From Escherichia phage Pride, in the sequence record KX534341.1: a stretch of 44,899 bases of DNA; one strand, given 5' to 3'. Numbering within the stretch: the stretch's first letter is position 1; the number at the start of each line of letters is the position of its first letter. The notes beneath the pieces were generated by a model. It had not been told where the DNA came from. It made no database searches and saw only the letters and a program-made list of their open reading frames with translations. The translations under genes were made by a program, and so were the position numbers. Positions 4,549 to 44,899 of the stretch are shown in pieces.

Positions 4549-5142
4549 GTGGCTGAAGTCTACTCATTCGCCGCCACTATTGCTACGTGGGTGGATAAGA
4601 CGAAGGAGAACAACGATAAGGCGGTGCGGGCGTACGGGATGCAAATACTCGGACGCCTTATTGAGATCTCCCCGGTGGGCGACCCTCGCCGGTGGAAAAT
4701 TAACAGGGCTTACGCGCTGGCCCGCCAGCACGCGAACAAGGTGAACGCCGCGCAGCGTCGCAAGAATGGCGGCAAACTGAAGCGCGGGCAGAAAAAGCAC
4801 GCTGGCGTGCTGGTGTCATTCAAGACTAAAAACGGCAACGTCACGTTCCGCCAGCGTGGCTGGGCTGCGAAGAATTACACCGGCGGACGCTTCCGGGGTA
4901 ACTGGCAGGTTACGTTCGACCAACCGGCTGTAGGCGCTATCGACCGCGTGGATAAGGCCGGAACGGCAACACTAGCCGCAGGGCGTGAAGTGCTGGCGCA
5001 TTATGATTCAGGTGAATACGGGTCGATCTGGTTTACTAACAATGTGCCGTATGCGCAGCGACTTGAGTATGGTTGGAGTAAACAAGCGCCCGCGGGGGTT
5101 GTTCGCGTCGTAGCGGCAGAAATTAATTCTAAGGTGAAATAA
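4549..5142 (+). CDS. HK97 gp10-like head-tail connector / tail completion protein
   Basis: GTG start coupled to upstream stop; C-terminal NVPYAQRLEYGW motif resembling the HK97 gp10 family as recalled from memory. Confidence 0.55.
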   Translation: MAEVYSFAATIATWVDKTKENNDKAVRAYGMQILGRLIEISPVGDPRRWKINRAYALARQHANKVNAAQRRKNGGKLKRGQKKHAGVLVSFKTKNGNVTFRQRGWAAKNYTGGRFRGNWQVTFDQPAVGAIDRVDKAGTATLAAGREVLAHYDSGEYGSIWFTNNVPYAQRLEYGWSKQAPAGVVRVVAAEINSKVK

Positions 5143-5564
5143 TGAGCAATACTCTAATCCGCAAGGCGCTTAACAGCGTTGTAGAAGAATTATCGGTAAG
5201 CCTGAGCACTAACCAGCGCCCGATAAAGGTTAACTGGGAGAACGTGAGCGGCGACCACGCAAACGGCAGCGGTGTCTACCTGGAACCGTACCTGCTTCCG
5301 GCCCCTACCCAGTTTGTGGGCTTCCAGCAGAAGGGCCGTATCTATGCCGGTGTGTATCAGGTTGCCGTGGTGTTTCCTGCAGGCACTGGCACACAGTATG
5401 CGAGCGAACTGGCGGACGCCATCGCGACGTCTGACAAGTGGCAGGCCGTAAGGCTTACCGGCGCTGCGTTCCAGCTTCAGGACGCGCCATACACCAGTTC
5501 GGTGATTGAGGATGTTGATCGCGCCCGCATCGTGGTTACAGTGCCCTATTCCTGTTGTGCCTGA
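5142..5564 (+). CDS. Putative tail terminator / tail completion protein
   Basis: ORF translationally coupled (ATGA overlap) to upstream gene; immediately precedes major tail gene. Confidence 0.45.
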   Translation: MSNTLIRKALNSVVEELSVSLSTNQRPIKVNWENVSGDHANGSGVYLEPYLLPAPTQFVGFQQKGRIYAGVYQVAVVFPAGTGTQYASELADAIATSDKWQAVRLTGAAFQLQDAPYTSSVIEDVDRARIVVTVPYSCCA

Positions 5565-5624
5565 TTTGGCGCAATTCTGCGCGTGCTGTATCATTAAACC
5601 GTATATCTAAACAGGAGCTTTATT

Positions 5625-6350
5625 ATGGGTTATCAACTCCCCAACGGGTCCAGCGTCCAGATCGGGTCCGTATTAGGCAGCGGCATCGCTGTTACGGCAG
5701 CTACCAACGCCACCGCATCAATCTCTGACCTTACGCAAGGTTGCGTAATTACCTGCGCGGCATCGCATGGCCTGGTTGTTGGCGACGTTGTTATGTTCAC
5801 TAAAACCCCGTGGGTCCGAGCGCTTAACCGCGCATTCATCGTGGGTAAAGTAGCCGAGAACGACGTGACGCTGGCGCGCTTCGACTCCTCTGACGTCACA
5901 AAATACCCGACCGGCGCTTTCAGCGTAGGCACTCCGGGCGAAGTGGTGAAGGTGTCGAGCTTTATCGACTTCCCTTTCATTACTAACGTTGCCGTGTCGG
6001 GTGGCGACCAGCAGACTACTACCTTCCAGCCGTTGCAGGTGAACACCGCAATCAGTCTTAACACCACGAAAAACCCGTTGGTACAGACTTACACCTTCAC
6101 CCACGACGAAGAAGACCCGATCCGCCCAATCCTGGAAGACCTGGACGACACACAGAAAACCACTGTGATCAAGTTCACTAACCCAGCGGCAGCAAGTGGC
6201 AAAGGTGAAATTCGTATTTACCCGGCTAAGGTATCTTTCCAGAAGATTCCTTCCGCTGAAGTAAACAACGTGGAAACGGTACAGTCTACTCTGACCATGC
6301 AGTCTGATATGGTTATCTACCGTAAGGATCTGGTCGAGGCATTGTCTTAA
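5625..6350 (+). CDS. Major tail protein (putative)
   Basis: 241-aa ORF with AGGAG RBS, followed by terminator and then chaperone G/GT and tape measure (conserved siphovirus order). Confidence 0.6.
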   Translation: MGYQLPNGSSVQIGSVLGSGIAVTAATNATASISDLTQGCVITCAASHGLVVGDVVMFTKTPWVRALNRAFIVGKVAENDVTLARFDSSDVTKYPTGAFSVGTPGEVVKVSSFIDFPFITNVAVSGGDQQTTTFQPLQVNTAISLNTTKNPLVQTYTFTHDEEDPIRPILEDLDDTQKTTVIKFTNPAAASGKGEIRIYPAKVSFQKIPSAEVNNVETVQSTLTMQSDMVIYRKDLVEALS

Positions 6351-6419: not shown

Positions 6420-6782
6420 ATGGCTAAAGCACCACTCTTCACTCTTGACCCTAAGCCGACCTTTAAGCTGCCGATTGAGATCCCGCGCCCTGGTGAGAAC
6501 GAACCCGGCAAGATGACGTTTACCGTCCGTCACCGCCCGATCGACGAATTTTCGCAGACCATGCAGGACACCGAACGCAAGCTGTCGGAATATGACGACA
6601 ATGACCCGGACGGCTTTAACGTTATGGTCGAGGCCATCATGCACGTCGCAGAAGGCTGGAATCTGCCAGACGAATTTAACGCGGAGAACGTCCGCCGCCT
6701 GGTGGTCAACTATCCTCGCGCGTTCGGTGTGTTCCATACGTCGTACTATCTCGAACTGATGGGCTTGCGTGAAAAAAACTAA
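6420..6782 (+). CDS. Tail assembly chaperone (lambda G-like)
   Basis: Acidic ~120-aa ORF directly upstream of the tape measure gene; ends at a slippery site followed by an open -1 frame. Confidence 0.7.
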   Translation: MAKAPLFTLDPKPTFKLPIEIPRPGENEPGKMTFTVRHRPIDEFSQTMQDTERKLSEYDDNDPDGFNVMVEAIMHVAEGWNLPDEFNAENVRRLVVNYPRAFGVFHTSYYLELMGLREKN

Positions 6783-7099
6783 TTGAGGCGGCGCGACGCT
6801 TTTATGGCCCGCCGCCACCCTCCGAAGATTTAGCCGCAAGTTTATGGGGTGCGTCCCCCGAAGATGTTTGTCCGCCTGTTGCGTTATGGCCTGACAACGC
6901 GAAGATAGTCGCAGTATTCACGGATTGTGCCACGCAATGGCGCACCGGATTTGGTGGCGCATACGGCATCGATTACGGCGTGCTGGAGTGGTTATTTAAG
7001 ATGCACGGTATCGAAAACGAGCAGCGCGCGTTTAAAGATATCAAGCTAATGGAACGAATCGCGCTTGATGAAATGGCGCAGCAGAACCACGCACAGTGA
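6420..7099 (+). CDS. Tail assembly chaperone frameshift product (lambda GT-like), made by -1 ribosomal slippage at A AAA AAC (6773..6779)
   Basis: The -1 frame is closed by a TGA at 6770..6772 and then open for 107 codons from 6779 to TGA 7097..7099 with no start codon of its own; slippery heptamer sits at the 0-frame stop. Confidence 0.7.
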
Positions 7100-7100
7100 A

Positions 7101-7425
7101 GCGGGACAAAGCGGGATGTCCCGTTTTGTCCCGCCTCTGTAAAACTGCATATCTAATCACTCCCATTGCATAAACCAAAAGAGGGACAGGCGGGACGTCC
7201 CGTTTTGTCCCACCCCATAAATGTGCATATCTATTCGCATTTCGTGCATAAAACAAACGGGACAAAAAGCGGGACAGACCAGGGGCGGGACAAAGCGGGA
7301 CAGCACCCCGTCCCCGCCAGTGCTGCCGCTGGTTTCAGCCGATCGGGACAGCGGGACAGCACCCCAGTCTTTCAGACTAGACGGGGGTCTGGCACCCCCC
7401 TCGTCTGAGACTGCATAGGGTTTGT
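7101..7425. repeat. GGGACA-array element, copy A: palindromic GGGACA sites (7101..7133, 7183..7211), duplicated TGCATA..GGGACA module, four direct GCGGGACA repeats (7259..7302), two more (7345..7358) and a conserved GC hairpin
   Basis: Direct reading; about 165 bp (7256..7413) aligns with 35432..35590 at roughly 85-90 percent identity. Confidence 0.8.
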
Positions 7426-7481
7426 TTGAAATTCGCTGATACAATGTCAATCGGCAACTGAATAAAAAAGGGGACTGCATA

Positions 7482-10124
7482 ATGGCAGATCAGGCAGCAG
7501 GCATCACGCTAAAGGCGGATGTTGCACAAATCAGAACGGCGAATACTGTGCTTGATTCATTCGCACAGAAATCCGAGAACACAGAAAACAAGGTTAAGAA
7601 ATTAAACGACACCCTCGGCAAATCCAAAAAGGTGACGAGTGACGCCGCGGGCGGAATGGAGAAGCTGGCGACTGAATCGCAGCGCGCTGCCGATGGCATG
7701 ACGAAACAGGAGCGACTTGCCAACAGGTTAGGCATGTCGACCAAAAACCTGGGCTTTGCCTCGCGTAACGCCGCATTCCAGTTACAGGATATCGCAGTTA
7801 CGCTTGAGATGGGGATGCCGGTACACCGCGTTATGCTTCAGCAGTTACCGCAGTTAACTGGGGCGTTCGGGGGATTGGGTAACACGCTGCGTTATGTGGC
7901 GGGATTCCTCGGCCCAGTAGGGATCGGCATTGCCGCACTAACGGCAACGTTAGGCGTCGGCGTGGCAGTTACGACCCGAGCAGAAAACCAGGTCGCAGCG
8001 CTTAACAAGACGCTGGCGCTGTCGGGTAACATTTCCGGCCTCACCGCTAACCAGATCCTTGTGCTGTCTGAGAACGCTGAGCGCATGGGCTGGTCATTCC
8101 GCAAGACGCGAGACACCATTCAGGCACTGGCGGCGGCGGGCGTTAAAGCGGGTGCGGACTTCGGCGCGCTGGCGAAAGTGGTGAATGACTTTGCGAAGGC
8201 GTCTAATCAGCCGATCTCTGACGTGGTTGAATCCATCTCAAAATTGTCGAACGACCCGGTCGGTGGACTGCGCGCACTGGCGGACCAGTATCACGTCGTT
8301 ACCGAGGCGCAGATCCAGCAGGTGCAATCACTAGTGACGGCTGGTCGAGAAACCGAAGCGGTGGCGCTGGCGAACAAAACCGCCGCTGCGTCGTTCTCCA
8401 GCATGACCAATGAGATCAAGTCCAACATGGGTACGCTCGAGCGGTCTATGAACGTCGTCACATCTGCAGCCAAATCCATGTGGGACGCCATCCTGGATGT
8501 AGGACGCGCGCAGTCATCGAATGAGTCCGAGATGAAAGCGCGTGAATCCTTGCAGCGCATGACCACGGCTTACTATGCCGAGATGAAAGCGGTAAACGCT
8601 GCCGGTGGGGTGATGACCGAGGCGCAGAAAGCGCGTATTAACATGCTTTACAGCGAACTGGTCGCCCAGGAAAAGGTGGTGGCGTCGCTCACCCTGCGCA
8701 ACCGCGCCGAGCGAGACAACGCCAGCGCCGCTGACGAAGCAGCAAAGGCGAACGAGGAGGCAAACCGCACCGCCCGCGACCGCGCCGCGTTTGAGAAGGA
8801 GTACGCAACCAACGCGAAGCGGCGAGCCGACGAGATCGCCCGCCTCAATTTGCTGAATAAGCGCGGTGTTATTAACGAGAAAGAACTAGCCGAGGCGGTG
8901 AAGCAGGTCAACGAGCGCTACAAAGACCCAGCACCGAAAAAGGCGGCGGCAATTCGAGTCGATGCCGGGCTGAAAATGCTGGAAGTCGCGCGAAGCGAAT
9001 TAGCCCAGCTTCGTGAGTCTGGAAAGCAGATCGAAGCCAACGCATCGACGCAGACCCGCACGCAACGCGCGCAAGCGGCCCTTAACAAGCTGATCGCGGA
9101 CCATGAACAGTTAATCGCGGCGAGCAAAGAAAGGGCGCTGACGGCAGCAGAAAAGCAGCAAATGGCGGAGTTCGAGTCGGTTAAATCGGTACGCGAGCAG
9201 ATCGTCGAAGAAGCCAAATTGCTGGACGCGAAAGAGAAGCAGATCAAGGCACACGCCCAGGTCGAAGCATTCATCAAGAACCAGAACGCCGAGCTAAAAG
9301 CCACCGCGGCGGGCTATGCGCTTTCTACTCGCGAAGCGGCTAACCTGCGCGAAGAGTTGCAGCTAATTGACCGCCTTCAGCGTGCCGGTGCTAACGATAC
9401 TGATATTGACAAGGCGGTGTATAAGCTGCGTGAGGTTCAGGAAGCACAGACCGGTGCTAACGCCTCATTATGGGATGGATTCAGTCGCGGGCTTCGCGAT
9501 AGTGTGGATGAAATGGGTAACGGATACACGCAGATGTCGTCACTCACAAAATTCACGTTCGGTGCTATGCAGGACACGATGAACGAGTTTTTCGAGACTG
9601 GCAAGCTGAACGCAAAAGATATGGTTAAGTCCATTCTGAGCGAATTAATAAAGCTGGCTACCTCGCAGGCGTTCAAGTCCATCGTTAGCGCTTTCGGTGG
9701 CGACGGCGGCAAAAACGGATTGTTCGGCGCTATCTTCTCGGGCCTCACTAAGAATGCGGACGGCGGAGCGTACACCGGAGGCAATCTCGCGGCCTATTCG
9801 GGGCAAGTGGTGAGCCAGCCTACCTTTTTCAGTTATGGCGTCCAGGCGTTCGCTAAGGGCGCTGGGTTGATGGGTGAGGCTGGACCCGAGGCCATCATGC
9901 CACTGAAGCGCGGGCCGGACGGGAAACTGGGCGTTGCCGCGTCTGGCGCAGGCGGTGGTATGGTCGTGACGACTAACGTTTACACGGGGACCGGTAAGAC
10001 GGATACCAGTGTTGGCGGGCCGGACCCACGTACCGCGCAGGCGTTCGGCAAGCAAATCACCGAGGCGGTGAAGGCCGAGATCGTGAAGGCGATGAAACCG
10101 GGTGGTGTACTTTACAAACGATGA
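7482..10124 (+). CDS. Tape measure protein
   Basis: 880-aa ORF rich in A/Q/K/E coiled-coil-like sequence, between G/GT chaperone and tail-tip genes; AAGGGGA RBS. Confidence 0.85.
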   Translation: MADQAAGITLKADVAQIRTANTVLDSFAQKSENTENKVKKLNDTLGKSKKVTSDAAGGMEKLATESQRAADGMTKQERLANRLGMSTKNLGFASRNAAFQLQDIAVTLEMGMPVHRVMLQQLPQLTGAFGGLGNTLRYVAGFLGPVGIGIAALTATLGVGVAVTTRAENQVAALNKTLALSGNISGLTANQILVLSENAERMGWSFRKTRDTIQALAAAGVKAGADFGALAKVVNDFAKASNQPISDVVESISKLSNDPVGGLRALADQYHVVTEAQIQQVQSLVTAGRETEAVALANKTAAASFSSMTNEIKSNMGTLERSMNVVTSAAKSMWDAILDVGRAQSSNESEMKARESLQRMTTAYYAEMKAVNAAGGVMTEAQKARINMLYSELVAQEKVVASLTLRNRAERDNASAADEAAKANEEANRTARDRAAFEKEYATNAKRRADEIARLNLLNKRGVINEKELAEAVKQVNERYKDPAPKKAAAIRVDAGLKMLEVARSELAQLRESGKQIEANASTQTRTQRAQAALNKLIADHEQLIAASKERALTAAEKQQMAEFESVKSVREQIVEEAKLLDAKEKQIKAHAQVEAFIKNQNAELKATAAGYALSTREAANLREELQLIDRLQRAGANDTDIDKAVYKLREVQEAQTGANASLWDGFSRGLRDSVDEMGNGYTQMSSLTKFTFGAMQDTMNEFFETGKLNAKDMVKSILSELIKLATSQAFKSIVSAFGGDGGKNGLFGAIFSGLTKNADGGAYTGGNLAAYSGQVVSQPTFFSYGVQAFAKGAGLMGEAGPEAIMPLKRGPDGKLGVAASGAGGGMVVTTNVYTGTGKTDTSVGGPDPRTAQAFGKQITEAVKAEIVKAMKPGGVLYKR

Positions 10125-21366: not shown

Positions 21367-21832
21367 GGAGTTCTCCTTCGCTCATTATTTCAATTTGTGC
21401 GCTGCCGGTTGGTGGCGCTTCGTCAAATATTATCAATTGCTGGCACTTGTTATTGCTCGGCCCGACTTCACCGGTGACAGCGTGTATAAATCTCACCCGC
21501 CAGTCCAGAAGAATTATCATATTGGCAGTCTTCCGGGCCAACTTCGCCCACTTCGTCGACGTGTCCTGATTCAGTAGCATGACAGTCCGGCGACCGTGCG
21601 CTGCGCATTCCACCCACGGCAGCGGGTCGGAATACGGCGGATTGCACCACTTCCACCCTTTCAAATCAGCCCAGTCCACATCAAGCGCGCTATGTTCTGC
21701 TGTGAAGTAACGCGGTAGCAGGTGGTTGGCATCGCTTGCCGCCATATCGTAACGGAATCGGTATTTCCGACGAAGCGGTTTGAATAAAGCTGGCGGCGTG
21801 CGCCAGCTATCTTTTTGCTCACTCTTCTGCAT
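21347..21832 (-). CDS. DNA N6-adenine methyltransferase (phage Dam-like)
   Basis: NPPY catalytic motif (WCNPPYS) and N-terminal SWRTPP region typical of the small phage Dam family as recalled from memory. Confidence 0.65.
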   Translation of the reverse strand: MQKSEQKDSWRTPPALFKPLRRKYRFRYDMAASDANHLLPRYFTAEHSALDVDWADLKGWKWCNPPYSDPLPWVECAAHGRRTVMLLNQDTSTKWAKLARKTANMIILLDWRVRFIHAVTGEVGPSNNKCQQLIIFDEAPPTGSAQIEIMSEGELLEYLNR

Positions 21833-22330: not shown

Positions 22331-22359
22331 AATATAAGGCAACCAATATGACTATGCAA
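22331..22359 (-). promoter_or_regulatory. Predicted promoter (TTGCAT-N17-TATATT) with two tandem ATTGGTTGC motifs
   Basis: -35 22354..22359, -10 22331..22336 on minus strand. Confidence 0.45.
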
Positions 22360-22364
22360 CCAAT

Positions 22365-25039: not shown

Positions 25040-25067
25040 AAATGGCGGGACAAGCCCGCCGTATTAA

Positions 25068-25272: not shown

Positions 25273-25301
25273 ACTATACCGCTATGCGACCAATTCAGCA
25301 A
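25273..25301 (-). promoter_or_regulatory. Predicted promoter (TTGCTG-N17-TATAGT) with ATTGGTTGC / ATTGGTCGC motifs
   Basis: -35 25296..25301, -10 25273..25278 on minus strand. Confidence 0.45.
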
Positions 25302-25560
25302 CCAATAAATCACAGTCGGCTATGCTGTCGATAACGCGAACGTCCGCACCGCGGCGGGCCATTCGCTCATGTTCTCGTACCTGGTGCGGCTTAGGTTTAC
25401 CGCCTGGGCGCTTCACTTCGACGAAAACTATCTTGCCGTTGATGATGATAATCAGATCGGGCGCGCCTGCGCGCCCCTCCCACGCCACTTTACGGCAGAA
25501 TCCGCCAACCTCTTTAACCCGTTTCATAAGGTGACGCTGCACCTTGCCTTCTGGTGTCAT
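25282..25560 (-). CDS. VRR-NUC domain nuclease
   Basis: PDLIIII..GKIVFVEVKRPGGKPKPHQ motif; ATG 25560 with AAGGAAAAG RBS. Confidence 0.65.
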   Translation of the reverse strand: MTPEGKVQRHLMKRVKEVGGFCRKVAWEGRAGAPDLIIIINGKIVFVEVKRPGGKPKPHQVREHERMARRGADVRVIDSIADCDLLVAELVA

Positions 25561-28742: not shown

Positions 28743-29525
28743 TTAACGGCGGCGACGTTTACGTGGTGCTTCGTCTTCGTCGTCGTCCTCATCTTCGTCA
28801 TCGCGTGGCTTACGACGTTTGCGAGGTTTTTCATCTTCCTCATCGTCGTCGTCATCGCGGCGCTTGGATTTCTTGGACTTGCGCGGCTTGTCATCTTCAT
28901 CATCGTCATCACGACGTTTTGACTTTTTGGACTTGCGCGGTGCTTCGTCTTCGTCGTCGTTGTCCAGGTCTTCATCGGAGCAAGAAGACCCGCCACCTCC
29001 GAAGGCTTCGCCGTCTTCACGGAATCGCAGACCCAGCAAGCCAGCCCCGAGACCCTTGCCGTTGGTGTTGTTCCACGCCCAAATATCAAGGGACACGTTG
29101 CAATAACAACCAGAGTAGATCTCCTGGCCTTCAATCTCGTCGCCGTCGATGGTCAGACCCTGTTCAGTCTGCTTCTCGCCGAGTGACGTTTGAATGATCG
29201 GCTGTTTGAACGATTTGGCGTTGATGTACAACATGCCTTCGAATTCTTCGGTCACTTCGTCGCGCTCGTCACCGTCGCGGACTGCGCATTCCTTCGAATC
29301 CTGGGCGTAGTGGCGGTCCATCCACTTATCAGCATTCTTCTCGGATTTCAGCTTGTCGGTTAGCACTGCGCGCGCTGCCGCTTCCACTTTGTCCACCTGC
29401 GGATCTTCTTTATCAAGAAGAATCACTGCACGGTATGCCGGTTTTTGTCCATCCTGTTTAGGGGTATCACGTTCCCAAATTTTAAGGAAACATGCGCGCA
29501 CATTTTTCAGGTTGACTTTAGCCAT
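28743..29525 (-). CDS. Putative ssDNA-binding / recombination-associated protein with charged repetitive C-terminal tail
   Basis: ATG 29525 with GAGGA RBS; adjacent to PD-(D/E)XK exonuclease gene; C-terminus made of alternating acidic/basic repeats. Confidence 0.45.
   Translation of the reverse strand: MAKVNLKNVRACFLKIWERDTPKQDGQKPAYRAVILLDKEDPQVDKVEAAARAVLTDKLKSEKNADKWMDRHYAQDSKECAVRDGDERDEVTEEFEGMLYINAKSFKQPIIQTSLGEKQTEQGLTIDGDEIEGQEIYSGCYCNVSLDIWAWNNTNGKGLGAGLLGLRFREDGEAFGGGGSSCSDEDLDNDDEDEAPRKSKKSKRRDDDDEDDKPRKSKKSKRRDDDDDEEDEKPRKRRKPRDDEDEDDDEDEAPRKRRRR
28790..28990. repeat. Imperfect tandem repeats (~54-60 bp) inside CDS 28743..29525 encoding alternating D/E and K/R blocks
   Basis: ggacttgcgcgg recurs at 28875 and 28929; protein repeats PRKSKKSKRRDDDD... 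Confidence 0.7.
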
Positions 29526-31759: not shown

Positions 31760-32266
31760 TTAATCTTCCAGTTCGAAATAAGTTTCGACGATTTCTTTTA
31801 GCTCTTTGTGGAAGTCTTCGACGTCGTCATCTTCCAGCTTAGCGATTGATTTGATTTCGAACGCGTCCAGCAGATCATCAAATTCGTCGTTCGCGTCGTC
31901 GTCATCACCGCCCGCGATAATCGCGGCATACTGTTTGATCTCGTCGCGCATCTCCGCCAGCGGATCGGCATCTTTCTTGCCTTTGCCCTTCGCCGGTGCT
32001 TTTTTAGACTTAGCCGGTTTTGCGTCTTCGGCGTCTTCGTCGTCATCTTCGACTACTTCTTTTTTAGCCTTACCTTTCGCCGGGGCTTTTTTAGATTTAG
32101 CCGGTTTTTCGTCTTCGTCGTCATCTTCGACAACTTCTTTTTTGGCCTTAGACGGCTTCTTGTCTTCCTGCTTACCAACGGCAGCGCCAACGGTTTCATA
32201 ATGCTTAGCGATGACTTCCAGTGCTACTACGCCGCGAGTGATCAGGTTTACGATTTGCTCAAACAT
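31760..32266 (-). CDS. Hypothetical protein with lysine/alanine/proline-rich and acidic tandem repeats (histone-H1-like tail); first gene of leftward early operon
   Basis: ATG 32266 with GGAGA RBS; 29-aa protein repeat KPAKSKKAPAKGKAKKEVVEDDDED from an ~87-bp DNA tandem repeat (about 31985..32160); acidic C-terminus. Confidence 0.6.
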   Translation of the reverse strand: MFEQIVNLITRGVVALEVIAKHYETVGAAVGKQEDKKPSKAKKEVVEDDDEDEKPAKSKKAPAKGKAKKEVVEDDDEDAEDAKPAKSKKAPAKGKGKKDADPLAEMRDEIKQYAAIIAGGDDDDANDEFDDLLDAFEIKSIAKLEDDDVEDFHKELKEIVETYFELED

Positions 32267-32668: not shown

Positions 32669-32998
32669 ATGAATATCAAAGAAGCAATTGAAGTGTTATC
32701 TAATGCAATCCGCGGCGAAGCGGGTAAATCCTGGTATTACACAAATGCGGTGGATACTCTGTTATTTGAAGTGTCCAGATTATCGCGTGCTGAGAAGGAG
32801 CTTACCGCGAAGCTGGAATTGCTCAACGGCACGGCAGCAAGCAAGCTGCAAAAACACAATGAAGAAATGGAAGAATACAAAAAACAGGTTATCCGTCTAC
32901 GTGAGGAAGGTAAATCCTGGGCGATGATTGCCGAGTTGACCGGAATTAATCAGAGCACAGTGCGCTCCTGGGTACGCAATAATAAAACTTCTAAGTAA
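32669..32998 (+). CDS. Helix-turn-helix DNA-binding protein (putative transcriptional regulator)
   Basis: CAGGAG RBS; C-terminal HTH-like segment (SWAMIAELTGINQSTVRSWV). Confidence 0.6.
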   Translation: MNIKEAIEVLSNAIRGEAGKSWYYTNAVDTLLFEVSRLSRAEKELTAKLELLNGTAASKLQKHNEEMEEYKKQVIRLREEGKSWAMIAELTGINQSTVRSWVRNNKTSK

Positions 32999-33008
32999 GG
33001 CCACGGCA

Positions 33009-35273
33009 ATGAGCTTAATTAAATTCGCTGTAACAAGACCCGCTAAAAAAGGCGAAAAAGCCAGGGCGGAAAACTTCCAGATGACGACCGATGAATTTTT
33101 CGAATTTATCAAAGATGCGAAAGAGATATCGTCGGTGCATATCAACAAGACGGAAGATAAAGCCGAGTATGCGCGCCGCAAGCGTAAGGCCGATGGCATC
33201 GTAGCGTATACCAGTGACGGCTTACGCCGCAAGACCAGTGCGGTGGACCGCTCGATCCTGTTCTTCGATATTGACCGTACCGACACCCGCACCCTACGCC
33301 GCTGCCGTAAGGCTTTCATCGACGCGGGGCTGGAGCACGTATTTCACACCACAACCGGCGACCGCCACCCGCTGAAAGGCGGCACGCGTTGCGCTCGTTT
33401 CCTGGTGCTCACCGACAAGCCTGTACCGGCTGAAGACCTGGGCCGCGTCCAGTACGCACTATTACACCAACTGGGCCTGTCAGATGTGGACTTCGATGAT
33501 TGTACGAAAGACACAAACCGCCTGATGTACCTGCCACACCAGCAGTCTGTTATTAAGTGCCACTACGGCAAGCGTGCCCGCGTCCGTCGTCTGCTTCGCC
33601 TGGCGGATAAGTTGGGCGTGGAGAAGGAGGAAGTACGCCGCGAGCTTACCCAGGGCGACGACGCAGTGGCAGACGGCATTCTGGACTGGTGCTTCCAGGC
33701 AGGATTCGAGGAGTTATCTTCCGGTCGCGGTTATGAAGTGCCGTGCCCGAACGAACATCTGCACAGCGGCGAAGGGTCGACGGCTATCATGGTCAAGGAT
33801 GGCGAGATCCGTTTCAAGTGTATGCACACCGGCAACGAGTGTTGCTCGGAACTGAACAGACACCAGCACCTGGCGCTACGTCTTATCGGGATCCCGGACC
33901 ACCTGAACGTCGAGCCGCACAACATGTCACGTAAGCAAATCGCCGCCATCCTTCCGGGACTGGACGATGAGGAAGTGGAATCGTGCTATGAACATATCGT
34001 TGATGCGGTCGGAGACGGCGACGAGTACGGCGTGTGTACTGATGCAGACCTGGACAACGAGCCGGTCGCACTGTTCAGTAAGCACGACCCGATCATCGAA
34101 GGCCTGGTCAACTTCAAATCGACCTGGTATCTCGCCGGTGAGTCGAACATTGGCAAGTCGTTCTACGTGCTGGGCCAGATGGCGTCAGTATCTGCCGGTA
34201 TTCCGTTCGGCGGTGCGAAGGTCGTCCAGTCTCATTGCTTCTATTTCGATGCGGAAGGTGGTGAGGCCTCCAACCAGCGTAAAGAAGCACTGCAGATCAA
34301 ATATGAGCACGACCTGGACAAGCTGCACATTATCGATCTGCAATCACGCGGCTGGGATATCACCAGCAAATCCGGCTTGCGTGAAGTTATCAGCTTCATC
34401 AACCGCACCGCTAACGGCGAGCCGGTTGGCCTGGTGGCGTTCGACTCACTCAACCAGACTGTTGCGCTGCGGTCCGCCGATGCAAAACCGTTCGACGAGA
34501 ATAACGCCAGCGATATGGGTGAAGTGGTCAAAGCGCTGAAGGCCATTGCGGAAAATACAGGCGGCAGTGCGGGCGTCATCCACCACCCGGCGAAGGGTGC
34601 AAACGGCAGCAGATCTCCCCGTGGGTCCGGCGCGCTGCATGGCGCTGTCGATTCTGCGTTCTTCCTGGAACAGCCGGACGACAACCAGCCAGGTCAACTC
34701 AACCTGTATCACGAAAAATCCCGTAACGGCATCAAGCAAGCGCCGCGCGGCTTCGTCCTGCTCAAGTGCAAGGTTAAGGTGGATCTCCGCAAGTCCGAGG
34801 CGTTCGAAGCCCACCAGTCCACCAGCACCGGGCCGGACTTCGGTGACGTCGTTGCCGGTTGGGACGTCAAGCCGATTGCCTCCACGCCACGCGACGAGAC
34901 TCTTTACCTCGTACCGGTCGCCCTGGCACCGTTCGCCATTGAGCAGGCAAAGGCCGCTGGCAAGGCCGCAGTTAAGGAAGAGAACGCCGCAGGACCGCGC
35001 AACGAAAAAGAGAAAGTGCTTTATGCAGCGCTGGAAAAACTGATGGAAGATAACCCGGACCATACCGGATTCAGCAAATCGGCAATTGTCCGCCAGGCTG
35101 GGCTTGCGAAAGGTGGCACATCGACGAAGGCAATTGACGATATGGTCGAGCGCGGCGTGCTCGGTTTTTATACCGATCCGCACACCGGGGCCATCTATGG
35201 GTCGTCGAATATCGTCATCAAAACGAAGATACCCATCACGCTTTCGGCGACCGATGACGACTTAAAAGATTAA
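33009..35273 (+). CDS. Bifunctional DNA primase / replicative helicase (primase-polymerase-like N-terminus, zinc ribbon, RecA/DnaB-like ATPase)
   Basis: ILFFDIDRTD acidic motif; Cys/His zinc cluster (CPNEHLH...CMHTGNEC); Walker A GESNIGKS; VIHHPAKG. Confidence 0.75.
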   Translation: MSLIKFAVTRPAKKGEKARAENFQMTTDEFFEFIKDAKEISSVHINKTEDKAEYARRKRKADGIVAYTSDGLRRKTSAVDRSILFFDIDRTDTRTLRRCRKAFIDAGLEHVFHTTTGDRHPLKGGTRCARFLVLTDKPVPAEDLGRVQYALLHQLGLSDVDFDDCTKDTNRLMYLPHQQSVIKCHYGKRARVRRLLRLADKLGVEKEEVRRELTQGDDAVADGILDWCFQAGFEELSSGRGYEVPCPNEHLHSGEGSTAIMVKDGEIRFKCMHTGNECCSELNRHQHLALRLIGIPDHLNVEPHNMSRKQIAAILPGLDDEEVESCYEHIVDAVGDGDEYGVCTDADLDNEPVALFSKHDPIIEGLVNFKSTWYLAGESNIGKSFYVLGQMASVSAGIPFGGAKVVQSHCFYFDAEGGEASNQRKEALQIKYEHDLDKLHIIDLQSRGWDITSKSGLREVISFINRTANGEPVGLVAFDSLNQTVALRSADAKPFDENNASDMGEVVKALKAIAENTGGSAGVIHHPAKGANGSRSPRGSGALHGAVDSAFFLEQPDDNQPGQLNLYHEKSRNGIKQAPRGFVLLKCKVKVDLRKSEAFEAHQSTSTGPDFGDVVAGWDVKPIASTPRDETLYLVPVALAPFAIEQAKAAGKAAVKEENAAGPRNEKEKVLYAALEKLMEDNPDHTGFSKSAIVRQAGLAKGGTSTKAIDDMVERGVLGFYTDPHTGAIYGSSNIVIKTKIPITLSATDDDLKD

Positions 35274-35410
35274 AATTTGCGCGCATTGGTCGCCGATATG
35301 GGGATTCCCATATCGCTAGACGATTAAATTTTGCGCGCATTGGTTGCCATTTTGAGTGTTTTTATCTGGTCGTATTGGTTGCCGTGTAGTGTGAATATAG
35401 TGAATAGTTA

Positions 35411-35592
35411 TGCAGTTTTATTGCATAAAGTAAGCGGGACAAAAAGCGGGACAAACAAGGGGCGGGACAAAGCGGGACAGCACCCCCGTCCCGCCACGGA
35501 TGGCGCGGCTTCCAGAGGAGCGGGACAGCGGGACAGCACCCCAGTCTTTCAGACTAGACGGGGGTCAATGGCCCCCCTCGTCTGAGACTGAA
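35411..35592. repeat. GGGACA-array element, copy B (homologous to 7256..7413), preceded by direct repeats TTGCGCGCATTGGT(C/T)GCC at 35271..35294 and 35325..35350
   Basis: Four GCGGGACA direct repeats, GGGACAGCGGGACAGCACCCCAGTCTTTCAGACTAGACGGGGG...CCCCCCTCGTCTGAGACTG conserved in both copies. Confidence 0.8.
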
Positions 35593-35749
35593 TAAAATCC
35601 GGGGATTGCAAAATACACGGCAGCATGATGCTAAGTGCGGTCGTCGATGAACTAGGCAACCAATGCAGGTTGTATTATGCTGAGTGAAAATGCGGTTTGC
35701 AGTCACAGCAGATAGCGATCAACTTTTTCATGCGCGTGATTAATATTGG

Positions 35750-35778
35750 TTGCACCCTGCCTGGCGCCCTGCTATATT
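35750..35778 (+). promoter_or_regulatory. Predicted promoter (TTGCAC-N17-TATATT) with two ATTGGTTGCAC motifs
   Basis: -35 35750..35755, -10 35773..35778; -10 and leader nearly identical to the promoter of the 714..1478 gene. Confidence 0.5.
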
Positions 35779-35806
35779 GGTTGCACACCAACAAGAGGAC
35801 TGAACG

Positions 35807-36112
35807 ATGAAAGCATTAATCTGGAATTACACATCAGCGGTCGCAGCGCTCTATGAAGCGAAGCACACAAACGGCAACGCCGACCACGCACGCCAGGCTG
35901 TAATGTTCGCGCAGCAGGCAATCTTTGCAGCGTTCGACAACATGGGCGTCAGCCTGGATGAACTGGAACCATTGCGTGTGGCAATCTGCGAGTATGCGAT
36001 GAAATTCGCCCGTGAGCGTCTTGCGTACCGGTTTGGCATCGGAGAGACGGCAGTGACTAACATCGCTCGCATCACGGCTCAGCGTGAGCTGCACGCCTTA
36101 CTTGCGAAATAA
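35807..36112 (+). CDS. Hypothetical protein
   Basis: ORF with AAGAGGA RBS. Confidence 0.6.
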   Translation: MKALIWNYTSAVAALYEAKHTNGNADHARQAVMFAQQAIFAAFDNMGVSLDELEPLRVAICEYAMKFARERLAYRFGIGETAVTNIARITAQRELHALLAK

Positions 36113-43576: not shown

Positions 43577-44663
43577 TCAACATTTGGCGGATCGAATGAT
43601 TCGCCGTCACATCTTCACCCAGCGCCTGAGCAATGATCAGGCGCGGAGGGTGCTGGCTATGTGGGAGAAGTTCCGGCCCACTTTACTTGGTAAGCTGACC
43701 GAGTTACTTGATGGCAAAAAGTCCATGAGCAACAAGGCACTTACCACACTGTTAACGCAACTCGACAAGACCGTCAAAACGGAACTGCGCGCCGAGTTTA
43801 AAGTGCTGGCGGATAGTCTTCAGGAGTTTGCCGACACCGAGGCCGATTACCTCGCCGACACATTAACGGCAGCGATCCAGCCGGTGGTCGCCGTACCTGC
43901 GGTCGAGGTGGTGGGTGTAGTAACAGGCGCGCAGGTCGCAGCGACTGCGATGAAAAACCCGTTCCAGGGTAACACCATGATGCAATGGCCGGATTCACTT
44001 TCAGAGTGGACAAGGACGCAGATCGGCAATCAGGTGCGCGCCGGATTCATCCAGGGCAAGCCGACTATGGAAATTATCGCGGACGTGAGGCGCGCGCTCG
44101 GCGGTCGTAGTGCGCAAGCAATCTCAAGCGTTGTTAAGTCCGCTGTCAACCACTATGCGGCGACCGCCCGCGAATTAATGGTGAAAGCTAATGACGATAT
44201 TCTCGAAGGTCGCCAATGGTTGGCCACATTGGACACTCATACTTCCCCTATGTGCCAGCTACGCGATCGCCTGTTTTATCCTGTTGACGTCACTCCCGAC
44301 ACCAAAGGAAAACGCGGCGGGAAAGTGGTGGCGGGATCACAATATGGCGCTGGTCCGGGCAAGCTGCATTATTGCTGCCGTTCGACGGAGACGTGGAAAG
44401 TTAAGGGCATGGAAGACTGGCCCAGTGGTAAGCGTCCGGCACTGAAGGCTGACGCAGGCAGATTGCTGAGTGAGCAGGTAGACGCGCAGACTGATTTCTT
44501 CTCATGGGTGCAGCGCCAGCCGCGCCATATTCTGGAGGAGTTATATGGAGTGCAACGCGCCGACCAGATTATGCGCGGCGTGAAAGTGCCGAAGATGTTT
44601 ACCGATTCTGGCGAACTGATGACTATTGCACAGCTTAAAAACCGGGGGTTATGGCGTGATTAA
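43560..44663 (+). CDS. Head morphogenesis protein (Mu F / SPP1 gp7-like minor head protein)
   Basis: Position after portal; WLATLDTHTSPMCQ motif typical of the minor head protein family. Confidence 0.7.
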   Translation: MSKTINQHLADRMIRRHIFTQRLSNDQARRVLAMWEKFRPTLLGKLTELLDGKKSMSNKALTTLLTQLDKTVKTELRAEFKVLADSLQEFADTEADYLADTLTAAIQPVVAVPAVEVVGVVTGAQVAATAMKNPFQGNTMMQWPDSLSEWTRTQIGNQVRAGFIQGKPTMEIIADVRRALGGRSAQAISSVVKSAVNHYAATARELMVKANDDILEGRQWLATLDTHTSPMCQLRDRLFYPVDVTPDTKGKRGGKVVAGSQYGAGPGKLHYCCRSTETWKVKGMEDWPSGKRPALKADAGRLLSEQVDAQTDFFSWVQRQPRHILEELYGVQRADQIMRGVKVPKMFTDSGELMTIAQLKNRGLWRD

Positions 44664-44899
44664 ATATGCAGCGATCGGACTGGTTATCGGTCTGGTGGTA
44701 GGATTCTGGCAGGGTGATTCCTACCGAGCTGCCGTTGTGGCGAGAGCATCGCAAGAAGCGCAAGCGAAAGCCCAACGGCAGCAAACTAAGGTTGTCGAGG
44801 GGGCTGTGCAGGCAGAACAGGCCCGCGATGTGGAATACCGGACTATCACGAAAGAGGTTGTGAAATATGTTACGCGTCCTAACCGTCCTGATTGCAGTT
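44519..44899. repeat. Terminal direct repeat, second copy (identical to 121..501)
   Basis: Base identity with window start. Confidence 0.9.
44656..44899 (+). CDS. i-spanin, duplicate partial copy in terminal repeat (truncated by window end)
   Basis: Identical to 258..501. Confidence 0.5.
   Translation, partial: MIKYAAIGLVIGLVVGFWQGDSYRAAVVARASQEAQAKAQRQQTKVVEGAVQAEQARDVEYRTITKEVVKYVTRPNRPDCS

Follow-up and report, generated by a model that had tools for sequence, protein, structure and literature searches.

The 44,899-base sequence of Escherichia phage Pride (KX534341.1), hereafter the window, is a complete Dhillonvirus genome, sharing 99–100% identity with Escherichia phages Gluttony and Lust. 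A primase-helicase gene of 754 aa (33009..35273, plus strand) is followed by a 533-bp non-coding gap, extending from the end of its open reading frame (ORF) at 35273 to the ATG of the next gene at 35807. The gap holds an array of short boxes and a long hairpin, referred to below as element B or copy B. The primase-helicase is predicted to contain an AEP primase fold, a Cys/His cluster, a RepA-like helicase, and a C-terminal winged helix, and we propose it as the initiator that binds the boxes. An original prediction, made from the letters of the window, had described the gap as carrying the second copy of a GGGACA-array element. A repeat search and pairwise alignment bear this out: the two copies form a 195-nt direct repeat (7223–7417 and 35400–35594) with 83% identity. 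Element B is probably the replication origin of the phage, or the main cis-acting site of its replication initiator, as argued here from sequence comparison and predicted protein folds.

The first box starts 161 nt past the stop codon of the primase-helicase gene. From 5' to 3', the core consists of an AT-rich module, four direct boxes, one inverted box, a variable spacer, two direct boxes, a 49-nt hairpin, and the ACGGCAGC motif; element B thus holds six direct and one inverted CGGGACA. The four direct GCGGGACA boxes, which are candidate iterons, lie on the plus strand at 35434..35479, with start-to-start spacings of 12, 16, and 10 nt. The inverted box GTCCCGCC (35488..35495, minus strand) converges with the fourth of them. 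The gap between these convergent boxes is 9 nt in most phages, including copy B of this phage, and 0 nt (GCGGGACGTCCCGC) in copy A of HK578, both copies of Ioannina, and copy B of L031. A variable GC-rich spacer (35496..35519), differing between A-type and B-type copies, separates this group from two abutting direct boxes located by box search and alignment (35520..35535, plus strand). The 49-nt near-palindromic hairpin (35542..35590) has three tiers with stems of 6, 5(+2), and 6 bp and a G/C apex; folded as DNA, it has a free energy of −12.7 kcal/mol (z = −4.3), and it is a candidate single-strand initiation structure. The motif ACACGGCAGCA (35615..35625, plus strand) occurs 3' of the hairpin in every lineage examined.

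The boxes of the array, claimed from the sequence alone, are well above chance. The GCGGGACA box was found 13 times in the whole window versus 1.9 expected, and none of 100 shuffles reached 13. Six of these copies are in element B (35434, 35446, 35462, 35472, 35520, and 35528), six are in region A, and a lone copy is at 25045.

The AT-rich module (35401..35428) is a candidate DNA-unwinding or auxiliary site. It consists of the 14-mer TGAATAGTTATGCA (35401–35414) and the palindrome TTATGCA-N7-TGCATAA (35408–35428). An identical or near-identical 14-mer was found downstream of the helicase gene in the uncultured relatives L038, L039, and L043 and in Salmonella phage FSL SP-031. The N7 loop of the palindrome reads GTTTTAT in some Dhillonviruses and the reverse complement, ATAAAAC, in others; the flipped loop suggests hairpin formation in single-stranded DNA during replication. 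Loop inversion of this kind is typical of hairpin-mediated template switching. DnaA boxes were also considered, as TTATGCA(N)(N) fits TTATNCACA at 7–8 of 9 positions; this assignment was not adopted because position 8 varies freely between copies and lineages.

Conservation was calculated as the mean majority frequency over 32 distinct Dhillonvirus copies (16 of type A and 16 of type B). It was highest in the hairpin stems (0.98, with 34 of 42 positions invariant) and in the boxes (0.95, 30 of 42), whose core CGGGACA is almost invariant in the 32 copies. Lower values were obtained for the inter-box spacers (0.84, 8 of 26), the hairpin apex (0.77, 2 of 7), and the middle spacer (0.76, 3 of 24). 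Pairwise alignment of the two copies of this phage agrees with the earlier statement that the apex differs (TCTGGCA in A, TCAATGG in B) while the flanking stems are identical. The suggestion of selection on structure drawn from it is supported for this large hairpin by the invariance of its stems beside a variable apex and by three-tier hairpins of unrelated sequence in other genera. Within the genus the large hairpin offers no true covariation, since its stems never vary there.

For the features upstream of the core, the same suggestion was not supported. The original prediction placed two 22-bp direct repeats there, flanking a hairpin with an 8-bp stem. Both features exist, with slightly different positions: the 18-mer TTGCGCGCATTGGTYGCC occurs exactly twice, at 35277–35294 and 35331–35348, a few bases off the predicted coordinates, and the hairpin, unique in the whole window, lies one base to the left of its predicted place. 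The repeats extend to 32 nt with 88% identity (35263–35294 and 35317–35348, both on the plus strand). The first overlaps the helicase stop codon (35271–35273) and carries ATTGGTCGC at 35285–35293; the second carries ATTGGTTGC at 35339–35347, and a third copy of the ATTGGTTGC motif, devoid of a −10 element at promoter spacing, is at 35374..35382 on the plus strand. The small hairpin (GATATGGG-GATT-CCCATATC, 35295..35314) has a free energy of −6.2 kcal/mol as DNA (z = −3.3 versus shuffles). The two repeats with the hairpin between them amount to a 54-bp tandem duplication or insert, in which the final codons of the helicase gene and its stop are copied.

This arrangement is lineage-specific. Among 17 sequences (this phage and 16 distinct Dhillonvirus B regions), the 54-bp duplication was present in 7 and absent from HK578, SO-1, EP23, and others; EP23 lacks even a single repeat, and Ioannina has two repeats and no hairpin. 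In the phage collection, the full arrangement was covered by 85 of 150 matching records. The few changes in the outer stem of the small hairpin among relatives (G to A, A to G) are uncompensated. Because only about half of the relatives have the duplication, we regard the direct repeats and the small hairpin as peripheral: by their sequence, they are a recent duplication of the flanking regulatory motif ATTGGTYGC, outside the core. An ORF overlapping this part of the gap and the array (35331–35585, 84 aa, TTG start), annotated as a hypothetical protein in some records, was rejected as coding because 1-nt indels occur inside it among relatives.

Copy A (region 7101..7417, plus strand; shared core 7223–7417) is located in the tail operon, between the tail chaperone and tape-measure genes. 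It fills a 380-bp non-coding gap (7101–7481) between the chaperone frameshift product, ending at 7100, and the tape-measure gene, starting at 7482, and breaks a junction that is normally tight. In addition to the core, the region contains two palindromic modules (7101–7134 and 7183–7214), each made of two direct boxes and two inverted ones, and the AT-rich module recurs there in inverted orientation (7140–7161). The HK578 record labels the first of these palindromes a rho-independent terminator; a consensus scan of 6700–7600 gave just two weak terminator-like sites, both on the minus strand and within a box palindrome.

Copy A was found in all 16 distinct Dhillonvirus A copies examined, and both positions are fixed in every Dhillonvirus examined. 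Cornellvirus FSL SP-031 has a single copy of the element, following the primase-helicase gene, and none in the tail genes; this indicates that the B position is ancestral and that copy A arose by duplication in Dhillonvirus. The retention of copy-specific middle spacers in A and B indicates that selection, not gene conversion, holds both copies. Distant lineages were also searched for a second copy: matches to short box patterns in viral contigs were mostly due to chance, the L039 contig matched at the B site only, and a tape-measure search returned only Dhillonviruses.

Two copies lying 28 kb apart and retaining 83% identity could also be a selfish or decaying repeat that does nothing for the phage, e.g., a miniature mobile element. 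We consider this scarcely credible: neither terminal inverted repeats nor target duplications were found, the positions are fixed in the Dhillonviruses examined, orthologues occupy the same gene junction across genera, and the boxes and stems are conserved while the spacers drift, with copy-specific spacers kept.

Relatives outside the genus were identified by a protein search with the primase-helicase and by reading the sequence past the stop codon. The full layout (AT-rich module, three or four direct boxes, one or two inverted, a spacer, two or three direct, a long hairpin, and (A/C)ACGGCAGC) was present in L038, L039, and L043 (uncultured, 37–45% identity), in FSL SP-031, and in L235 (69% identity). 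Looser arrays with boxes such as TTGCGAGT and TTCCGCACA were found in Klebsiella phage 37P2 and in L241–L244, each with a long hairpin and the ACGGCAGC motif. The primase-helicase junction is thus used in at least six lineages with the full layout and five with looser arrays. The box sequence is specific to the lineage (CGGGACA in Dhillonvirus and L235, TCCGACA in L038, AGGGATA in L039, GGGGAT(G/A) in L043, and GGGGAGA in FSL SP-031), yet the count and order of the parts are constant. Hairpins of 49–65 nt with z between −2 and −4.4 follow the gene in eight sequences from seven lineages. Aligned manually across genera, they have no common sequence and the same three-tier shape (L039, L043, 37P2), with stems of 5–6, 4–5, and 4–6 bp in four lineages.

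These comparisons also bear on the possibility that the large hairpin simply terminates the primase-helicase mRNA or protects its 3' end, with the boxes as incidental repeats. The record of one relative annotates a terminator in region B, as that of HK578 does in region A, and a T-rich TTATTCAT stretch follows the hairpin in L038, L039, L043, and FSL SP-031. In Dhillonvirus, however, the hairpin is followed by GAATAAAATCC, which has no T run, and neither a terminator-like site nor a promoter was found by the consensus scan of 35000–36000. As such a role would also leave unexplained the invariant boxes that shift by lineage and the second copy inside a read-through operon, we find it quite improbable.

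The protein encoded upstream of element B has a single Pfam match, to AAA_25 of the RepA family (residues 357–531, E = 3.5e-20); an SF3 (D5/P4-alpha-like) helicase domain was not matched, and Pfam searches with the isolated N- and C-terminal parts gave no match. Sequence searches of PDB with the protein and with a profile returned weak matches to RSF1010 RepA (1g8y) and nothing else informative. A primase fold like that of RSF1010 RepB' is predicted for the N-terminal part and a winged helix for the C-terminal part; P4 alpha (1ka8) was not among the fold matches listed. No match to an iteron-binding initiator family was found in the four proteins scanned (the primase-helicase and three neighbours), the rest of the genome being judged by the annotation of the record.

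In about ten lineages compared by eye, the start of the recognition helix, past a conserved Gly-Gly, changes together with the box sequence. TSTKAI and TNTTAI correspond to CGGGACA; RRRPAV to CCGACA; NRRPAM, GRRPAM, and KRRPAI to GGGAT-type boxes; GRYAAL to GGGGAT(G/A); DRYKIL to GGGGAGA; NYKKVL and HYGKTL to TTGCGA; and RYSDAL to TTCCGCACA. A small helix-turn-helix protein encoded upstream of the primase-helicase (32669–32998), which is sigma-70-region-4-like in Dhillonvirus and Cro/C1-type elsewhere, was also considered as the reader of the boxes. It is an unlikely one because it is non-orthologous between lineages of the same architecture.

The conserved part of each upstream direct repeat, ATTGGTYGC, occurs 16 times in the whole window versus 1 expected (1502–1524, 17617, 20666, 22339–22364, 25286–25306, 32470, 35285–35382, 35656, 35745–35784, and 36310). 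Most copies supply TTGCAN as the −35 of a sigma-70-like promoter whose −10 element lies 17 nt downstream, and at some promoters a second copy lies over the −10 (TATATTGGTTGCAC). One such promoter, TTGCAC-17 nt-TATATT (35750..35778, plus strand), is downstream of element B and belongs to the next gene (ATG at 35807); it was read from the sequence and scores too low to pass the consensus scan. The three ATTGGTYGC copies upstream of the element were also considered as sites of sigma-70 promoters and rejected, as none has a correctly spaced −10. By its sequence context, ATTGGTYGC is probably the site of a phage transcription factor. Its enrichment is limited to the Dhillonvirus lineage, L235, L042, and partly 37P2; hence we take it for a regulatory signal in its own right, whose position on the flanks of the element is coincidental.

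In L042 (IMG/VR contig 2700989012_000001), where the primase-helicase has a different C-terminal domain, the gene is followed by a 900-bp non-coding gap (4795–5693). This gap contains nine copies of GCAACCAA(C)/TTGGTTGC, the motif marking Dhillonvirus promoters. The sequence of L042 hints that an ATTGGTYGC-type motif can itself be the repeated site at the primase-helicase junction.

Copy B has the early rightward operon on one side and, on the other, the sigma-70-like promoter serving a long rightward gene block, with ATTGGTYGC regulatory motifs on both flanks. The boxes might consequently be a transcriptional control array, occupied by a DNA-binding protein of the phage, either the winged helix of the primase-helicase or some other factor, which would keep early-operon transcription from reading through or set the timing of the promoter at 35750–35778; copy A would act likewise before the tape-measure gene, where expression of the tail genes could be adjusted. 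The lack of a terminator between the element and the upstream gene fits such a function. Nevertheless, the boxes are 215–345 bp upstream of the −35 of the promoter, which is far for a bacterial activator or repressor, and the long conserved hairpin would have no obvious role. The constant partner of the array is a replication protein with three domains matching replication initiation, and Cornellvirus has no copy in the tail operon. Control of transcription by the array is therefore, in our opinion, rather unlikely.

We also considered that the element acts as RNA: a structured 3'-untranslated or intercistronic RNA stabilizing the transcript, a source of small RNA, or a cis-acting modifier of RNA polymerase like the HK022 put RNAs, with the GGGACA repeats bound by an RNA-binding protein. 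Both copies and all orthologues are oriented with transcription. The 73-nt end segment including the hairpin folds at −31.8 kcal/mol, the whole-element fold has z = −2.0 in copy B and −2.4 in copy A, and in every lineage pairing is possible between the inverted box and the final direct box. At the same time, most boxes have no pairing partner, and in the copies with a 0-nt gap (HK578 A, Ioannina A and B, and L031 B) the convergent boxes abut without a loop, making a full RNA hairpin impossible. There was no Rfam 15 match at the gathering score in the whole window, and 35200–35850 gave only chance-level matches to eukaryotic small nucleolar RNAs and microRNAs (E above 1, up to E = 10). HK022 put sites lie directly after their promoters, whereas the promoter nearest upstream of copy B is 3 kb away. 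Boxes and modules are also found inverted, and the recognition of double-stranded DNA is favoured because the boxes occur in both orientations (in the region A palindromes and in the 37P2 array), the convergent gap is either 0 or 9 nt, the AT-rich module is inverted in region A, and the flanking motif is inverted in L235. Function as RNA appears unlikely to us, even more so than transcriptional control.

The octamer following the hairpin has a genome-wide distribution of its own. ACGGCAGC is the most frequent 8-mer of the genome, with 24 copies on the plus strand and 6 on the minus strand (e.g., 35616–35624, 32830–32838, and 21615–21623). ACGGCAAC is second with 18, and ACGGCARC totals 42 versus 13, the third-order Markov expectation being about 2 per octamer. 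ACGGCARC is found in all three reading frames and in non-coding DNA, and the same bias was observed in SO-1, HK578, Ioannina, and FSL SP-031 (14 versus 4). Judging from this distribution, it may act as a signal recognized by the primase or as a Chi-like one, or may stem in part from a codon effect.

We read element B as an origin since its parts match known origins located beside their initiator gene. From the anatomy and conservation of the element and the predicted folds of the protein, we infer binding, melting, and priming steps as follows. The CGGGACA boxes would be iterons to which the primase-helicase, encoded directly upstream, would bind through its C-terminal winged helix. Several bound protomers would assemble the RepA-like hexameric helicase on the DNA, and the assembled helicase would open the surrounding DNA, the AT-rich TGAATAGTTATGCA module being the likeliest place. 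When exposed as single strands, the 49-nt near-palindrome could fold on either of them. The folded hairpin may be the start structure for the N-terminal AEP primase, like ssiA/ssiB for RSF1010 RepB', and priming would occur on it or at the conserved motif beside it. The tail-operon copy, A, would be a second binding site of the same protein and, as such, could be a second origin, an enhancer like crr of P4, or a fork barrier like oriR of SPP1.

The origin reading is supported by the constant linkage of the array and hairpin to the stop codon of the primase-helicase gene across Dhillonvirus, L235, L038, L039, L043, and FSL SP-031, and by conservation of 95–98% in boxes and hairpin stems versus 76–84% in spacers. 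Also in its favour are boxes that change with the lineage inside a constant layout, the signs of recognition at the DNA level, and a predicted winged helix whose recognition helix tracks the box. Several points weigh against it. With no predicted terminator separating it from the gene, the element probably forms the 3' end of the early operon transcript. Both copies and all orthologues are oriented with transcription, which leaves a role as RNA some probability. The AT-rich module is upstream of the array, not between iteron sets, and the spacer between the box groups is GC-rich, unlike in the origin of staphylococcal pathogenicity islands (SaPI). In some relatives whose protein has the same winged helix (L034–L037, L040, L041, Kagunavirus, and Jerseyvirus), the gene is followed by a plain terminator only. 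The GC skew, with a minimum near 31–33 kb, tracks gene orientation; therefore, it cannot locate the origin independently. Moreover, the hairpins of different genera were compared by manual alignment, and the correspondence of helix and box was read by eye.

Some other features of the genome concern neither copy of the element. One genome unit measures 44,398 bp, and there is redundancy at the ends of the window: a repeat search showed that 121–420 equals 44519–44818, and 1–127 is the reverse complement of 175–301 and of 44573–44699. From these repeats, the redundant ends (1–420 and 44519–44899) look like an assembly artefact on a circularly permuted genome. Degenerate direct-repeat families rich in TCGTC/TCTTC were found at 28759–28977 and 31971–32150, in two early minus-strand genes; read on that strand, they would give acidic protein repeats rich in Asp/Glu.

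In GenBank, a 'region A' and a 'region B' are already marked in the record of Sodalis phage SO-1 as similar regions of direct, inverted, and palindromic repeats; other records have only terminators or hypothetical proteins at these sites. In the literature, no paper was found that describes or tests the element, nor one on a Dhillonvirus replication origin. The kind of element is known, and the one described here would be a new member with an unusual composite layout and a second copy. Dhillonviruses are common coliphages, included in the BASEL collection and in therapy-oriented studies. A defined pair of origin and initiator would help in mapping origins by marker frequency, interpreting replication-dependent defence, and building minimal replicons, and the joint shift of boxes and recognition helices across lineages would provide a natural series for studying the evolution of initiator specificity.

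Among known systems, that of oriV in the IncQ plasmid RSF1010 shares a RepA-family hexameric helicase with the phage, as judged by the Pfam match. In RSF1010, RepC binds the iterons, RepA unwinds, and the AEP primase RepB' starts on the exposed ssiA/ssiB hairpins (PMC8567376). In the phage, these three activities seem to be fused in one 754-aa protein instead of being divided among RepC, RepA, and RepB', and no sequence homology to RepC was detectable. The phage boxes are 7–8 bp, whereas RSF1010 iterons are 20 bp and recognized by RepC, a protein of its own; a single near-palindrome takes the place of the two ssi sites, which in RSF1010 lie on opposite strands, and the whole element has a second copy. 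A wider generalization, which we advance only tentatively, is that virulent enterobacterial siphoviruses of a widespread group (Dhillonvirus, Cornellvirus, related Guernseyvirinae, and uncultured relatives) replicate by a single-protein version of the IncQ system. One chain would then combine the primase (RepB'-like), the helicase (RepA-like), and a winged helix that reads the iterons, and would act at a composite origin of iterons and hairpin; in Dhillonvirus, the duplicate in the tail operon would be a programmed second origin or fork barrier, and the strand-biased ACGGCA(G/A)C, the commonest octamer of the genome, would be the primase signal.

In SaPI, the C-terminal winged helix of the Rep helicase reads 6–12 short iterons directly downstream of rep; some iterons have the opposite orientation, and specificity differs between islands (PMC9371898). 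The boxes of the phage are likewise directly downstream of the helicase ORF, short, within this range of number, and partly inverted. The helicases differ, as SaPI Rep is an AAA+ helicase of the SF3 or MCM-like group (PMC9371898) and not RepA/DnaB-like. The AT-rich region of the SaPI origin is central, between iteron sets, and no long hairpin has been described there; in the phage, the AT-rich module is lateral, and a conserved hairpin follows the boxes.

The Sulfolobus plasmid pRN1 has a small repressor gene, a gene for a primase-helicase with a winged helix (ORF904), and an essential downstream stem-loop taken as the origin (PMC4234260). This stem-loop is kept in structure and poorly conserved in sequence across relatives, and the authors noted similar arrangements in phages (PMC4234260, PMC2777425). 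With an AEP primase, a helicase, and a winged helix in one predicted protein and the gene of a small DNA-binding protein upstream, the locus of the phage has the pRN1-type arrangement, and its stem-loop past the gene is also conserved across genera in structure and not in sequence. Whereas pRN1 uses an SF3 helicase and has no iterons, and its stem-loop is about 100 nt long, the phage has a RepA-like helicase and a 49-nt hairpin preceded by iterons.

Phage P4 has octamer iterons at two loci, ori and crr, separated by about 4.5 kb, both bound by the primase-helicase alpha via its C-terminal winged helix. The phage studied here also has repeats at two separated loci and a primase-helicase with a predicted C-terminal winged helix beside them, though its copies are 16/28 kb apart. 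The domain order of P4 alpha, with a DnaG-type primase and an SF3 helicase, is known (PMC2777425).

Phage SPP1 has two similar origins, oriL and oriR, each with direct repeats as well as a region rich in AT, one at the replication genes and the other interrupting late structural genes (PMC6316719, PMC3485210). OriR binds the same initiator as oriL, and the initiator bound there was proposed to stall forks and so to set off the change to concatemer synthesis (PMC6316719, PMC3485210). In SPP1, the initiator gp38 is a protein distinct from the helicase and from the helicase loader, and gene 38 contains oriL; there is no sequence or protein homology to the phage studied here. The two systems are nevertheless alike in having one copy at the replication genes and a second, here copy A, inside the late genes, and the tail-operon copy offers a testable Gram-negative parallel to SPP1 oriR.

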